The notes under the pieces were generated by a model, which was not told the DNA's origin, did not search any database, and worked only from the letters and a program-made list of their open reading frames with translations. This document shows, one piece after another, positions 7,324-13,610 of a DNA stretch of 64,000 nt. Each line of letters opens with the position of its first letter. The stretch's first letter is position 1. Source of the DNA: an uncultured cyanobacterium (lineage in GTDB: Bacteria > Cyanobacteriota > Cyanobacteriia > Pseudanabaenales > Pseudanabaenaceae); contig OY969811.1 in assembly GCA_963703315.1 (NCBI GenBank), forward strand, positions 1,344,001 through 1,408,000, given 5' to 3'. A program made the translations under genes and the position numbers.

Positions 7324-9525
7324 TCACGAACCTATAATACGGAGCATTCGCGATTCTATCTGTTCCCAAGTTTTGCGAGAAACGGCGATCGCCCGATTTT
7401 TACATTGCACCATTAATAAATTGGCATAGAGATAGTTCTCTAACGCTTCTACTTCCTGATGTGAAATTTGATTTAATTCCATCGGTAGATATAGTGTTTG
7501 TAGCCATGTACGGCTGATTTGATTGCGAAAAGTTTCTCGTACTTCAAAGGATTGATCATAGCTTGGTGACTGAGAAGCTAGGGACTCTAACCTCGTGCTT
7601 AAAGCCATGAAATTAATATTTTTTTTGTCAAAATCAATTTTGGCAAGAGATTGTTCCAATTCGCTACAAAGTTGGATTGCTAAGTTCAGTTCTGTCGCAC
7701 TATCAAAATCAAGAGCATGGGCAAGGCTCAGGGAAAGATCGGCGGCAAAAATCTTATCAAAATTTAAAGATAAATCAAAAGTCTTATACAAATCCTGTGC
7801 AAGTCCTAGAATCCTTGTCAAAATTAGAGCAGGAGCAAGTTCTGGCAAGAAACGAGGACGTGCTAGAAAGATCGCCGCAATGCGTTTAGCCACAGATTTT
7901 AATTCACCTTTAGAATTTAGATTTATTAGTTCTATCCAATCTAAAATATCGCGTAACTTATTAGTATTGATGTAGTTAGAAGTCTGTAACTCAATTGCTA
8001 ATAGAAGCTCTTCAGAATCACCAACTGCCATACCTGCTAGTAATAGAAAAATGTTCTGCCAACGGCGATCGCTCAAATACTGAGGAACGATTAATTTAAT
8101 CTTATGGTGATTATAAATATAACGAGCCGCAAAATATTCTTGAAAAGTAATGTGACTAAATAGAAAACTTGTAGAATTTCTAGAAGTGTTAATCTTACAA
8201 ATACCAATCTGCCGTAAAACTTTTAAGATAAAATCAACTTCGACCCCGTCGATAACACCCATGTAATTAGAGATTATTTGTTGTAAATACTCAGTTAAGT
8301 CTTGAAATGGTAAAAGTGACTGTCGTATTTCAAAACTTTTATAAGCAATTTCCGATAGTAAGATATCTAATATATCGGTACTAATAATATTGTTAGCTTG
8401 ATCATTTAGTAATTGACATTTTAACACTTGTTCTTCTAATACTAAATTGATTGCTTTTTGGTATAGACTACTCACATTACTCGGTAAACTATAGCGGCGA
8501 TCGCATAGTAAGCACAAAAATGATAGGCATAAAGGTGAATTAGCTAAATCTCTTGCCACACTATTTAATTGTAATATTTTCCAGCATCGTTGCGCTTCTT
8601 CCGATGCCACATCTTGTTCCGACCGAGCAGACTCGGCATTACTAGTATTTGCTTCTTGAGTAGTCCTTGACTCAGATGCGATCGTGAACCACTTATGGAT
8701 GTATTCCTGAACATGAAGATCATCCCAAGTCTGAAGTTCTAATTCCAAAAACTGCCCCAAACTACTTTGGTAAGAAGCTAAACGGCTAGAGACAATATAA
8801 CGATTTTTAGGATAGGCTTTGACAAAATCTCTTAAATGATTGGATAGATATTTTTGCGATAATGGTGATTCATTCAATCCATCAATCAAAATCAGCAGTT
8901 TCCCTTTCTCTAACATCCATATAGCTAGCTCTTGCGACTCAGGAAAACCACATTTTTCTAACTCTTCAGCGATCGCCTGCAACAAAGTATCGTCATTGTG
9001 ACAAAACTTCCATAAATGCAAAAAAACAGGCAAAACATCATGTTTATATCGAGATTCTGGATAATACAAAGCTTCCATTCCAATGTATTTCAGAAAAGTC
9101 GTCTTCCCTACAGCAGGTTCTCCTAAAATTGTCAGATAAGCTTCTTCGTTCGCAATGTTTAATCCTAAAAGATTATTCCCCTTACTATAACTACTTCTCT
9201 GAAGATCACGAGAAAAAGCTTCTTCTAGTTCATCAACAGACTCAAAACTACGAACAGAAGTATGTGCCTGTTTCAGTCTCTGAGAAATATAGATCGACAA
9301 TAGTGTGGTCAGACTTTGACTGCCAAATATCTGTATGAAAGCGTAAGACTTTACATAATTGCGAGCATATTGAGTTGCAGCCTTAGAAACAGCATGGCTA
9401 AAATAAACTTCATCTACCTCACATTCCCTCCCTTTTGCACTCTCCGTAAACCCAGACAATGCCGTCTTAAATCTTTTGACAACCTCACGAATAGTTTGTT
9501 CTTGCTTGATGTTCATTGTCAACAT
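7324..9525 (-). CDS. NACHT-family STAND NTPase with C-terminal helical (NCH2-like) domain
   Basis: Walker A GEPAVGKTT, Walker B LLILIDGLNE, SSR sensor, SPLCL, FSHITFQEYFAA; C-terminal YLYANLLMVQC..W..IE.RML. Confidence 0.88.
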   Translation of the reverse strand: MLTMNIKQEQTIREVVKRFKTALSGFTESAKGRECEVDEVYFSHAVSKAATQYARNYVKSYAFIQIFGSQSLTTLLSIYISQRLKQAHTSVRSFESVDELEEAFSRDLQRSSYSKGNNLLGLNIANEEAYLTILGEPAVGKTTFLKYIGMEALYYPESRYKHDVLPVFLHLWKFCHNDDTLLQAIAEELEKCGFPESQELAIWMLEKGKLLILIDGLNESPLSQKYLSNHLRDFVKAYPKNRYIVSSRLASYQSSLGQFLELELQTWDDLHVQEYIHKWFTIASESRTTQEANTSNAESARSEQDVASEEAQRCWKILQLNSVARDLANSPLCLSFLCLLCDRRYSLPSNVSSLYQKAINLVLEEQVLKCQLLNDQANNIISTDILDILLSEIAYKSFEIRQSLLPFQDLTEYLQQIISNYMGVIDGVEVDFILKVLRQIGICKINTSRNSTSFLFSHITFQEYFAARYIYNHHKIKLIVPQYLSDRRWQNIFLLLAGMAVGDSEELLLAIELQTSNYINTNKLRDILDWIELINLNSKGELKSVAKRIAAIFLARPRFLPELAPALILTRILGLAQDLYKTFDLSLNFDKIFAADLSLSLAHALDFDSATELNLAIQLCSELEQSLAKIDFDKKNINFMALSTRLESLASQSPSYDQSFEVRETFRNQISRTWLQTLYLPMELNQISHQEVEALENYLYANLLMVQCKNRAIAVSRKTWEQIESRMLRIIGS

Positions 9526-9559: not shown

Positions 9560-9664
9560 TAAGTAGCTAGGCATAATTAAAAACCAGAGTAGAAACCTGT
9601 GACGCACGCGCAGCGTGCGCCACAGGTTTCTGGGTTTTATCTTTAAATTGCGCCCAGATACTTA
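9560..9664. mobile_element. Family A MITE/REP-like element
   Basis: TAAGTAGCT...AGATACTTA ends; same GCGCACGC-GCA-GCGTGCGC hairpin (one mismatch) as 1498-1587. Confidence 0.65.
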
Positions 9665-10447: not shown

Positions 10448-11005
10448 ATGGCTCTCGATCCTCAGGTCTTCATGACCACCATGGAAACACGGATATCTTT
10501 CACCGCCGCAGATAAAGCTTTGCTAAAAGCCAATGCAGCGTGGGGGAATTCGATCGCTAGGCAAATGGCAGAAGTGTTTTACGCCTACCTTGCGCGTGAT
10601 CCAGAAATGAACGCTATTTTAACTGCCAAAGAAGGAAGAATGCACCGTTTAAATGAAACTTTCGTCGAATGGTTTGGCGAAATGTTTACGGGTATGGATG
10701 ACTGGGGGAGCGCTTATGCCGCACGTCGTTGGCGTATTGGCTTAGTCCATGTCCAGATTGGTATTGGACCACAGCACGTCGTTCCAGCAATGGCAACTGT
10801 CGTCAATGAAGTGGGGAAACAACTCAAGTCAGCAGGACTGGCTGAAGATCTAAGAGATGCTTTAGGACGCATTTGTATGATTGATCTTGCATTTATTGAG
10901 CAAGCCTATGTCGAGGTCTCTTCTCAAGCGGTTTTACGCGAGACGGGATGGACTGAGGCACTATTCAAACGCATGATTTCTACAGGTGCGGCAAGCATGA
11001 AATAG
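10448..11005 (+). CDS. Protoglobin / globin-coupled-sensor-type single-domain globin
   Basis: FT.AD..LL, EVFYAYL (B10 Tyr), RIGLVHVQIGI (proximal His F8), DLAFIEQAY; RBS AAGGAG upstream. Confidence 0.88.
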   Translation: MALDPQVFMTTMETRISFTAADKALLKANAAWGNSIARQMAEVFYAYLARDPEMNAILTAKEGRMHRLNETFVEWFGEMFTGMDDWGSAYAARRWRIGLVHVQIGIGPQHVVPAMATVVNEVGKQLKSAGLAEDLRDALGRICMIDLAFIEQAYVEVSSQAVLRETGWTEALFKRMISTGAASMK

Positions 11006-11041
11006 AAAAAGATTAATTCTTGAAAATTTTGGAGGCTATAT

Positions 11042-11500
11042 ATGCGTGCAGAACTTGGCGAATTTAGCAGTATTGTTTGTTTCAAAGCCATAGTTACTGG
11101 GGCTGAAGAGGCACTGGGTGAAAAGGCGGCAATGATCACGCTGATCGCCGCAGGTCGCGCTCGTGGTAAACAACTTGCAGAACAGCTTGGATTAAAAGGT
11201 GTGGGTACTGACCATGAACACCTAGTTCCCCTGCTCCAAAAGGCATTGGGTAAAGATGGAACGAGACTTTGCATTGTAGACAAAATTGAACAAGACGGTG
11301 CATTAGTGAGAGTTTACTGTCGAGAAACAATTTGTTCGGCTGGTGAACCTGAAGGTTCTCCTCGCAAACTGACCTTCACCCTAGGCGCAATCCAAGGAGT
11401 GATCGAACAAGTTACAGGGGAACGTTTACGGGGTAAGCAAACGGAGTCCGTTTTGCGTGGTGGTTCCCATGATGTCATTGAGTTTGAAGTTATTGGATAA
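11042..11500 (+). CDS. V4R-like small-ligand-binding protein
   Basis: AG.ARG..LA, ETICSAGE, FTLGAIQG.IE and QTESV.RG..HD.IEF fit the V4R/H-NOX-like fold; RBS GGAGG. Confidence 0.72.
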   Translation: MRAELGEFSSIVCFKAIVTGAEEALGEKAAMITLIAAGRARGKQLAEQLGLKGVGTDHEHLVPLLQKALGKDGTRLCIVDKIEQDGALVRVYCRETICSAGEPEGSPRKLTFTLGAIQGVIEQVTGERLRGKQTESVLRGGSHDVIEFEVIG

Positions 11501-11571
11501 TTAATTTCCTCTTCCTCAAACTCCACCGTATTTACAGACAATTTACAATAATTCAAAACAAGGAAAAAGAA

Positions 11572-11943
11572 ATGAGCATTAACGTTGCGAAGTTGGAAAG
11601 TATTTTACAAAATTTGGTCACTAGTACTAGTGATGTACAGGGCGCAGCACTTGTGTCTCCCGATGGGCTACCTCTAGCCTCAACTTTGCCAAGTGGCATG
11701 GATGAAGAACGTGTATCAGCAATGTCGGCAGCAATGCTCTCATTAGGTGAACGCATTGGTAATGAGCTAGCTAGAGGTGGCATCGATCGCCTGTATGTAG
11801 AAGGTGATAAGGGCTATGGCATCCTGACTAGTTGCGGGGAAGAGGCTGTTTTACTAGTTTTGGCAAGCAAGGCAGCAAAACAAGGTTTATTGATGTTAGA
11901 AATTAAGCGTGTCACAAGCGAACTTAAAGCAGCACTTGCCTAA
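11572..11943 (+). CDS. Roadblock/LC7 (MglB-like GAP) protein
   Basis: VQGAALVSPDGLPLAS, ERVSAMSAAMLSLGERI, VEGDKGY, GLL.LE. Confidence 0.92.
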   Translation: MSINVAKLESILQNLVTSTSDVQGAALVSPDGLPLASTLPSGMDEERVSAMSAAMLSLGERIGNELARGGIDRLYVEGDKGYGILTSCGEEAVLLVLASKAAKQGLLMLEIKRVTSELKAALA

Positions 11944-12055
11944 GTTGTTTGAGTATTCATCCCCAGTCACGGTTTTAAGTTTGCTTACGGCAAAATCAAA
12001 ACCGTGACAACAGTTCAGATTTTAGGGTGACAAAGGGAAGGGACAAAAGAGATTT

Positions 12056-12598
12056 ATGGAAATCATGAGGTTGGTTGTGGCTGGTACTGTTGGTGCGGGG
12101 AAATCAACTTTCATTCGGACTGTGAGCGAAATTGATGTTGTCGATACCGATCGCCGTGCTACAGACGAAACAGCAGAAATAAAACACAAAACTACGGTAG
12201 CAATGGACTTTGGTAGATTAACCTTTGGTCCAGATATGGCTTTACACATTTATGGAACCCCCGGACAGCAGCGTTTTGACTTTATGTGGGATATTTTGAT
12301 CCGTAAAGCCCATGCATTTATTTTATTAGTAGCGGCACATCGTCCCCATGAGTTTCGTTATGCCCGTCGCATTCTCAGTTATATGAATCGGCGCGTCCAA
12401 ATTCCTTACATCATTGGGATTACGCACATGGATTGCGAAGGTGCTTGGTCAAGTGAGAATATTAAACTAGCACTAGGATTTGTCGAACAAAAGGATCAAC
12501 CACCCGTAGTGGTTTTAAATGCAGAAGAACGAGATACTGTCATTCAGGCGATTGTGGCTCTAGTGCAGTACTATATTGCAAATCAATCCGTTGCGTGA
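12056..12598 (+). CDS. MglA-like (conservon CvnD-type) small Ras-like GTPase
   Basis: G1 GTVGAGKST, switch I TTVAMDFG, G3 YGTPGQQRF, G4 variant THMD. Confidence 0.92.
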   Translation: MEIMRLVVAGTVGAGKSTFIRTVSEIDVVDTDRRATDETAEIKHKTTVAMDFGRLTFGPDMALHIYGTPGQQRFDFMWDILIRKAHAFILLVAAHRPHEFRYARRILSYMNRRVQIPYIIGITHMDCEGAWSSENIKLALGFVEQKDQPPVVVLNAEERDTVIQAIVALVQYYIANQSVA

Positions 12599-12695
12599 TT
12601 GTGAGCATCGATCATTATTGTTTTTAATTGATCTTGTTAGGAATTACAGCTATTCTCAGCTATAGATTTGGGCATTAACTCTCTGGTTTACAGTT

Positions 12696-13565
12696 ATGGC
12701 AATTACAGGCTCTTTATCCGAGTTCTCTCTCCCAGAGATATTCCAGTTTTTAGATCAGGGACAAAAAACTGGAATATTAACGATTAGAGATCCTCAAGAC
12801 TTGCGGACAGGCAAGCCATTTTTACGTCATATCTGGTTGCATAGTGGACGGGTAGTAGCTGCGGGCGATCGCCTCGACAATCGGGGTTTAACGAGATTGA
12901 TCGAACAAAGGGGCTGGATTACAGAAGCAAATCGTTCTCAAGTAGAGCAGTTAATTCAAGAAAATATCCCTTTGGGGCTAAATCTCAAAGCATTGGGAAT
13001 ATTACAACCCGATCAACTGAAATTATTATTTAGCGTACAGGTGCTAAGACAGGTCTGTTCTCTGTTTCAAGTTGAGACAGGACAATTTCGCTTTGATGCC
13101 AAAAGTGATTTACCCAAAGCGGAAATGACAGGGTTGAGTTTGCCTGCAACAGAAACAACGTTAATGGGGTTACGCAGTCTCAAGGATTGGACAGTTTTAC
13201 AAAGTAAGTTGCCTGACACCAGTTCGACATTATTTAGGCTTGGTAGTGATGAGCCACATTTACGTTTAGATGCCAGTGAGACGCAAGTACGTGGACTTGC
13301 TGATGGTTCCCTAAACCTTAAAAAAATAGCGGAGAAATTACAAGTTCCTTTACCTAAACTTCAGCAAATTGCATTTCGCTTGATTGTCGTTGGGCTAGTA
13401 GAAGAAGTACCTGATATTGATGTGGGTATGGCAATAAATAATGATAATAACTCCCAAGAAATTGAGGGGGATACTAGTGGGGCAGTGATGAGTTCTTCGG
13501 CGAGAACTGAGATTAGTAATTCATTTTTACAAAGCCTCGTAGGTTTTTTACAACACAAAGTGTAG
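12696..13565 (+). CDS. DUF4388/PATAN-domain protein with C-terminal winged-helix-like region
   Basis: MAITGSLSEFSLPEIFQFL..GQKTG.L, G.F.F, ADG..NL..IA..L..P..LQQIAFRLIVVGLVEE. Confidence 0.85.
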   Translation: MAITGSLSEFSLPEIFQFLDQGQKTGILTIRDPQDLRTGKPFLRHIWLHSGRVVAAGDRLDNRGLTRLIEQRGWITEANRSQVEQLIQENIPLGLNLKALGILQPDQLKLLFSVQVLRQVCSLFQVETGQFRFDAKSDLPKAEMTGLSLPATETTLMGLRSLKDWTVLQSKLPDTSSTLFRLGSDEPHLRLDASETQVRGLADGSLNLKKIAEKLQVPLPKLQQIAFRLIVVGLVEEVPDIDVGMAINNDNNSQEIEGDTSGAVMSSSARTEISNSFLQSLVGFLQHKV

Positions 13566-13610
13566 TTATAGAGTGGCGGCGCGAAGCGCTGCCACTCTAT
13601 TTTCAGCATA

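Follow-up and report, generated by a model that had tools for sequence, protein, structure and literature searches.

How might a soluble, presumably haem-binding globin be coupled to a small GTPase when both are encoded in one bacterial operon, and what would such a switch act on? This question is raised by five genes at positions 10448–13565 (+ strand) of a 64,000-nucleotide stretch of DNA, here called the window, from an uncultured cyanobacterium of the Pseudanabaenaceae (assembly GCA_963703315.1, contig OY969811.1, positions 1,344,001 to 1,408,000), which encode in this order a globin, a V4R/Bet3-fold protein, a roadblock protein, an MglA-family GTPase and a DUF4388 (PATAN) protein. A preceding sequence-only reading had proposed an O2/NO/redox-responsive G-protein module, with which the co-conservation of the globin, its O2-type neighbours and a weak predicted contact agree, but the V4R protein has not proven to be a fixed partner. 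The globin probably feeds the roadblock/GTPase module, and its signal is rather likely to be oxygen (O2), nitric oxide (NO) or carbon monoxide (CO), while pilus motility as the output, proposed by analogy, is about evenly balanced with a slight lean towards doubt. The explanation that we prefer as a whole, a group-5-type GTPase with its roadblock, a PATAN adaptor, a gas-sensing globin and a pilus output, is accordingly put forward as a tentative one.

The Globin and Its Association With the GTPase Genes

The globin (10448–11005, +; 185 amino acids) matches the Protoglobin family above its cut-off (PF11563, E 6.7e-19), carries no fused output domain and is a full-length orthologue of the stand-alone sensor globin Tlr1989 (PDB 8H17, E 1.5e-81), the structure of which presumably stems from Mathur et al. 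2023. In the alignment with the globin-coupled kinase 5ohe, its His101 (in the motif IGLVH) and its Tyr45 stand opposite the corresponding His and Tyr, at positions that we take to be F8 and B10. The proximal His and distal Tyr noticed in the sequence-only reading have thus been confirmed, and both are invariant in 81 of 81 aligned globins from two clades of only ∼26% identity (range 21–30%), as are F44, Q152 and L172; with these features the protein falls among the sensor-family single-domain globins. A conserved C-terminal tail (approximately residues 152–180) extends beyond the Pfam domain, and its residues Q152, A153, Y154, E156, L163, E165, E170 and L172 are common to both clades. We infer that the operon globin binds haem and O2. 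A protein identical to Tlr1989 heads the order globin, roadblock, GTPase, DUF4388, hemerythrin at one locus (L114), an operon that lacks a V4R gene, unlike the one studied here.

A single draw of 151 cyanobacterial genomes has yielded the GTPase in 21, the DUF4388 protein in 21, the V4R protein in 17 (two broken) and the globin in 16. All 16 globin genomes are GTPase-positive, and in each a globin copy lies no more than 3 kb from the GTPase; a globin of the operon clade has been found in none of the 130 GTPase-negative genomes. Of the V4R genomes 15 of 17, and of the DUF4388 genomes 20 of 21, are GTPase-positive. Within the genus of the source organism, the GTPase is carried by 18 of 24 genomes, and globin and V4R occur in 14 each, all inside those 18, the six GTPase-negative genomes (two of which are <90% complete) being devoid of both. 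The globin is thus conserved jointly with the roadblock and GTPase genes, as the first proposal would have it; the V4R protein is missing from 6 of the 21 GTPase-positive genomes and is no fixed partner of the globin.

A scan of the GTDB genomes, from which the best 80 of 309 globin relatives were kept and 19 with <2.5 kb of flank dropped, has left 61 loci with a roadblock gene within 3.5 kb at 58, roadblock and GTPase together at 56, V4R at 43 and DUF4388 at 35. All five genes are present at 25 of these loci, V4R being optional. Gene order is shuffled between lineages with co-orientation retained: it runs globin, V4R, roadblock, GTPase, DUF4388 in Pseudanabaena, and DUF4388, GTPase, roadblock, (V4R), globin in Calothrix and Rivularia, and Coleofasciculus shows tandem V4R–roadblock arrays. 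A roadblock gene directly adjoins 48 of 86 globin genes and a V4R gene 24 of them, and V4R genes for their part lie next to a roadblock (62 of 75 and 5 of 5 cases); at L008, V4R and globin each have a roadblock copy of their own, and at L018, L057 and L160 the globin has a roadblock neighbour and no GTPase near. Since globin and V4R both adjoin the roadblock, and since the globin retains this neighbour even at loci with no GTPase close by, the context indicates that the roadblock is the hub of the system.

Substitution of the Candidate Sensor in Other Lineages

A second globin clade takes the same place elsewhere. One of its members heads a roadblock–DUF4388–GTPase operon (L118), the GTPase of which branches within the cyanobacterial GTPases, and its relatives include Halothece, Chloroflexi and Deinococcus names (best 120 of 380 matches). 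Among 66 second-clade loci of a metagenome scan (E ≤ 1e-3), roadblock genes have been found at 45, GTPase at 34, DUF4388 at 24 and V4R at 5; 13 of the 16 loci with enough flank have roadblock and GTPase, and all five gene types occur at L121, L122, L134 and L151. Globins stand also beside TVPGQ-type GTPases (L143, L153, L175). Because of these neighbours, and because the roadblock is kept where the GTPase is not near, the globins follow the roadblock rather than the GTPase type. At L153, a DUF4388–roadblock fusion (L153:5236-5967) lies just upstream of the clade II globin, next to the TVPGQ-type GTPase and more roadblocks.

Nine of 150 matching plasmid records were examined, three of them as references for MglA groups 2 and 3. 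The order on the Thermus thermophilus plasmid is DUF4388, GTPase, roadblock, globin, and T. brockianus pTB1 (L188) has three protoglobin-domain genes in the operon, followed by EAL and HD-GYP genes. In Deinococcus, a V4R family member follows the roadblock in two plasmid records, and the records L187 and L192 hold neither globin nor V4R. A hemerythrin gene is found 3' of DUF4388 at L114 and L115. Both tlr1993 and Cyan7425_5247 have been placed among O2-binding-type hemerythrins (PMC4919030), and as Cyan7425_5249 is a listed MglA group 5 locus (PMC4316618), the locus tags suggest a third such case.

The Roadblock and GTPase Core

The GTPase (12056–12598, +; 180 amino acids; Pfam matches ATP_bind_1, Ras and Arf) shows the G1, G2 and G3 motifs read from it beforehand, namely GTVGAGKS, TT and GTPGQ. 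As a single query it found no match in the PDB sequence search, and its profile matched Arf and Ras. The GTPGQ motif and the Thr that replaces Arg beside the G2 Thr are invariant in 37 of 37 aligned GTPases, which is the published signature of MglA groups 2–5 (PMC4316618), whereas G4 reads THxD (His in 36 of 37) instead of [NT]KxD. The gene set tlr1990, in the order MglB, MglA, PATAN, has been tabulated as MglA group 5 by Wuichet and Sogaard-Andersen, 2014 (PMC4316618); the L114 GTPase fits this entry in length and neighbourhood, is 63% identical to the operon GTPase and forms one clade with it (support 96/98). The same three core genes are shared with the group 5 modules, and the coupled MglB and PATAN neighbours that mark this group are present here, but a tree of 34 rows, with cyanobacterial, Deinococcus/Thermus and other clades, does not separate group 5 from groups 2 and 3 at its base. 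As the GTPases that match listed members deviate at G4, too (SHAD at L114, TRQD at L192), this motif has been treated as descriptive, and for the operon GTPase no more is claimed than orthology to a listed member.

The pairing of MglA and MglB proposed at the outset is right as to the families, but not as to the Myxococcus polarity type. Assignment to group 1, known from Myxococcus and Thermus, has been rejected: a small GTPase and a roadblock are common to both, but the operon GTPase lacks the intrinsic arginine finger (KTTVAMDF) and has GTPGQ rather than TVPGQ, the sensors are encoded within the operon, and the roadblock resembles Myxococcus-type MglB only at E 0.2. A second, distant small GTPase of the source genome (G000:C1:1157382-1157942, −), which from its motif we take to be Rup-like, has no roadblock that could be found for it.

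The roadblock protein (11572–11943, +; 123 amino acids; PF03259, Robl_LC7, E 1.5e-19) is the only clear one in a scan of the source genome, and its best PDB matches are 7f8m (3e-25), 9jue (7e-19) and CvnB5 (9e-11). The actinobacterial G protein systems (AGPSs) or conservons (CvnA–D, MfpB/C/D/E) likewise pair a roadblock with a GTPGQ GTPase without arginine finger, and in them the sensor is thought to work through the roadblock or through an exchange factor for guanine nucleotides (GEF). The MfpD roadblock dimer acts as GTPase-activating protein (GAP) for the GTPGQ-type MfpB (PMC13343842, PMC13015309), where the proposed catalytic Lys61 lies four residues before Thr65 (PMC13015309); the invariant K43 of the operon GTPase precedes T47 by the same spacing. 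Membership in the conservons has been rejected, as the CvnA histidine kinase and CvnC (DUF742) are absent among the five proteins, in place of which the operon has a soluble globin and V4R, together with a PATAN protein.

Proposed Mechanism and Output

In the explanation that we favour, the globin would sense oxygen or a similar gas and would dock on the roadblock dimer depending on its ligand, possibly via the conserved C-terminal tail. The dimer would be the GAP, by analogy to MfpD/MfpB, and ligation of the globin would alter its availability, so that the GTPase cycle could be tuned by the gas level, and V4R may add a further, optional input at this roadblock. The PATAN protein may then pass the GTPase state to the type IV pilus motor by acting on PilB/PilC, in analogy to PixE.

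This last step concerns the DUF4388 protein (12696–13565, +; 289 amino acids; PF14332, E 6.6e-28), in which a PATAN domain, a helix-turn-helix (HTH)-like domain, a variable linker and a conserved C-terminal helix have been distinguished by alignment and by a model of pLDDT 72. PATAN and DUF4388 are the same domain, and in Synechocystis PATAN by itself suffices for binding to PilB1 and PilC (Han et al., bioRxiv 2021.06.11.447907). With the PatA-type regulators (PixE, PixG, LsiR) the operon protein shares this domain, which bears out the earlier link to them in part; the receiver domain of these regulators is absent (no PF00072 match), a short conserved terminal helix is present, and the operon does not lie in a chemotaxis-like locus. 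The idea of a PatA regulator with its receiver swapped for a helix has been dropped, as similarity outside the DUF4388 domain is not significant.

The input could be the same and the output nonetheless lie in gene expression or another target apart from motility, the HTH-like domain binding nucleic acid or acting as an exchange factor like CvnC/MfpC, which we hold to be unlikely. For it speak the HTH matches of the DUF4388 protein (HTH_47, E 0.006) and the MarR_2 matches of its relatives, the group 2–5 motifs that the GTPase has in common with the conservon GTPases, the control of metabolism and gyrase protection by AGPSs together with the reported GEF role of MfpC (PMC13621833, PMC13343842), and the EAL and HD-GYP genes that end the T. 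brockianus operon. The HTH matches, however, remain under the Pfam cut-offs, DUF742 is absent from the operon, and Han et al. argue that PATAN regulators do not bind DNA (bioRxiv 2021.06.11.447907).

For the input side of the preferred explanation, a complex of two roadblock copies, one globin and haem was predicted from row-matched alignments of 81 sequences. Its score of 0.59, against 0.00 for the best of three controls, lends the contact weak support, lies in a band that is more often wrong than right unless the pair is likely beforehand, and has returned no interface. Among solved pairs, 116 of 157 attain the mark for this score, and among mismatched pairs 2 of 215, counts that are only roughly applicable here; at scores ≤0.60, the pairs that attain it are just 18 of the 157 solved ones and both mismatches. 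Between runs, at least 94% of the contacts coincide, with a partner pLDDT of at least 88, and we know of no solved globin–roadblock complex that the prediction might recall.

A number of observations weigh against the preferred explanation, among them the band into which this score falls. The pilus output rests on the PATAN analogy, since the DUF4388 protein contains an HTH-like part, its model finds no fold match at E ≤ 0.001, and its similarity to one PatA-like regulator is not significant (E 0.21); the GTPase, moreover, differs from the Myxococcus polarity type. The operon-clade globin is missing from 5 of the 21 GTPase-positive genomes, one genome (G033) has the globin and no GTPase match, nine further globins from GTPase-positive genomes (L100–L108) have neither roadblock nor GTPase nearby, and orphan globins occur also at L073, L082, L092, L127 and L130. 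As the genomes are related, the co-occurrence counts are not independent. Of the 21 GTPase-positive genomes, only 2 have the hemerythrin inside the operon; in the source genome, the orthologous gene (G000:C1:1454707-1455126, −; 56% identical to that of L114) lies outside the window, ∼98 kb from the operon. A fusion of REC, DUF4388 and globin (P0253) counts in favour of the explanation, though as a single sequence.

Some of these points would fit a globin that is co-expressed but separate in function, serving NO/O2 detoxification or buffering or the sensing of haem status, and physically unconnected with the GTPase cycle; orphan copies are what it would leave, and the module is found without a globin in the five genomes just named and in Deinococcus L187 and L192. 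This we regard as improbable, given that none of the 130 GTPase-negative genomes carries an operon-clade globin, that adjacency to the roadblock survives both reordering and substitution by the other clade, that the tail outside the Pfam globin domain is conserved, and that roadblock binding is, if weakly, predicted.

The V4R Protein as a Proposed Optional Input

The second gene (11042–11500, +) encodes 152 amino acids with no Pfam or NCBIfam match and no PDB match by sequence search, and its assignment is made from the predicted fold. By language model it has V4R clusters as neighbours, and the structure modelled for it (pLDDT 87.5), of helices and a four-stranded sheet, matches in Foldseek PoxR (E 1.3e-6, TM-score 0.70) and Bet3 (E 7e-6, TM-score 0.66), along with the MopR V4R sensor and Thorarchaeota TRAPPC3 folds. 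Identity as an H-NOX protein has been rejected: H-NOX gas sensors have a conserved proximal His, no conserved His has been found in 38 sequences of the family, and the H-NOX fold match is weaker (E 3e-4). The glycine pairs of GxxxG type described by Podar et al. (PMC2253512) are both invariant (G38/G42 and G115/G119). C98 is the only one kept of four cysteines found in some V4R relatives, the last two zinc-type sites being occupied by an invariant S136 and by V, L or I beside an invariant D144. While the operon protein thus shows neither PF02830 nor the four-cysteine zinc site, a relative at L121 passes the PF02830 cut-off and keeps the four cysteines, so that the link to the V4R domain runs through relatives.

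The family is nearly always stand-alone (132 representatives); two apparent DUF4388–V4R fusions (P0263, P0264) have been discounted as maybe read-throughs, as a Met stands at the stand-alone V4R start. Broken or interrupted V4R genes lie beside intact neighbours at L028:4613-6791, at G065:C33:353183-353491 (the genome of L103) and on G134:C107, which fits a dispensable V4R. In the Coleofasciculus loci L046, L050, L051, L068 and L093, a single globin and a single GTPase are surrounded by tandem copies of V4R (up to six) and of the roadblock (up to five). At L113:3793-7351 (−), a GTPase-less series of DUF4388, V4R and roadblock genes is followed by a 399-amino-acid receiver-domain protein.

The trio of Bet3-fold protein, roadblock/longin-type platform and small GTPase is shared with the TRAPP core (Bet3, longin dimer and Rab) and with the Asgard TRAPPC3/roadblock/GTPase set. 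V4R might be read not as a ligand sensor but as a structural subunit of Bet3 type; it and the roadblock dimer would then make up an exchange factor of TRAPP kind that acts on the GTPase and is regulated by the globin. The rank of Bet3/TRAPPC3 among the top fold matches, the invariance of both GxxxG pairs, the V4R–roadblock adjacency, the distance of the roadblock's best solved matches from Myxococcus MglB, and the replaced zinc-type cysteines, with a like replacement in mouse TRAPPC3 (PMC10933270), are in its favour. It is nevertheless improbable: phenol-sensor V4R domains outrank Bet3 in the fold search, V4R is missing from those six GTPase-positive genomes, and divergent V4R paralogues in tandem arrays fit interchangeable sensors better than a core subunit. 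The TRAPP platform, furthermore, consists of longin and not roadblock domains (PMC10933270), so that the longin heterodimer flanked by Bet3 subunits that defines a TRAPP-type GEF is here replaced by a roadblock. The operon also unites its genes in one place, whereas the GTPase genes of MK-D1 are generally outside such operons (PMC10933270).

Significance

The sequence-only reading knew of no functional characterisation of the arrangement; the roadblock–GTPase–PATAN core has been published (PMC4316618) and the structure of a globin orthologue solved (8H17). The literature search, with most subscription journals outside its reach, has returned no paper that joins a globin or V4R to an MglA/roadblock system, and the main text and three of the supplements of PMC4316618 name no globin, those supplements also neither V4R nor hemerythrin. 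New is therefore the input side, with O2-type and V4R candidate sensors that are uncatalogued in the literature searched, while the core is catalogued. No group 5 MglA system is characterised in that literature, which describes signal entry into groups 2–5 as largely open; the operon supplies candidate inputs, one with a crystallised orthologue, plus a candidate binding partner, and the system is accessible in Thermosynechococcus and Thermus, harmless organisms of the laboratory. Stand-alone sensor globins have no fused output, and the roadblock would give one such family a partner. If the pilus motor is the output, a direct route from O2 to movement would exist in photosynthetic mats.

A wider proposal, which we consider doubtful as it stands, is a kinase-free system built around the roadblock dimer, a hub into which exchangeable sensors (two haem-globin clades, hemerythrin and Bet3-fold V4R) would plug. 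In Thermus, Chloroflexi-like bacteria and mat-dwelling cyanobacteria, it would convert the O2 level directly into the state of the GTPase and the direction of the pilus. If true, it would mean a molecular route to O2-taxis that involves no chemoreceptor, and the TRAPP/Ragulator architecture would have a bacterial counterpart contained in one operon.

Operon Layout and Surroundings

The five co-oriented genes predicted for the region have been recovered as five open reading frames on the + strand, separated by gaps of 36, 71, 112 and 97 nucleotides; each is single-copy in a scan of the source genome, and all but the V4R protein have Pfam matches above cut-off. The closing hairpin (13568–13600, +) is present as described, but it belongs to a dispersed palindromic repeat family with ∼162 matching places in the source genome and is thus no evidence for the operon end; it may still serve as a terminator. 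It was flagged by a terminator scan that found 4 sites in total against 4.5 in shuffles, and neither promoter nor terminator scans have given sites in excess of shuffles.

Another hairpin (11966–12008, +) lies between roadblock and GTPase genes, where the fold of 11944–12055 has a raw energy, without shuffle control, of −28.5 kcal/mol and three weak look-alikes elsewhere in the genome. A stable fold occupies this gap in all 18 loci examined (L020–L039; −23 to −90 kcal/mol, likewise without shuffle control), often with unrelated sequences between loci, and could skew expression toward the roadblock. Eighteen Pseudanabaena-type upstream regions share a GGAG ribosome site and no other common motif, and an Rfam search has given two sub-threshold matches only, taken as chance. 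A regulator near some loci, which we take to be RpaA-like, has been dropped, as it belongs to a mixed response-regulator cluster.

Divergent from the operon lies a NACHT/NCH2 STAND NTPase gene (7324–9525, −). That the switch signals to a neighbouring STAND NTPase in a stress or defence response, rather than to pili, is hardly probable at all. For it speak the NACHT genes that adjoin the operon in 17 of 80 loci, still adjacent at the other end in L029, and the genes of NB-ARC/TPR type that lie in the same orientation immediately downstream of either the GTPase or the roadblock gene in 8 of 80 (L043, L044, L049, L066, L070, L072, L081, L084). Against it, each of these linkages is limited to one lineage, the NACHT gene is divergent here with several paralogues in the genome, and no such cluster recurs among the neighbours of clade II loci. 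Between this gene and the operon, a second dispersed palindromic repeat family is represented at 9585–9640, with ∼120 places in the source genome.

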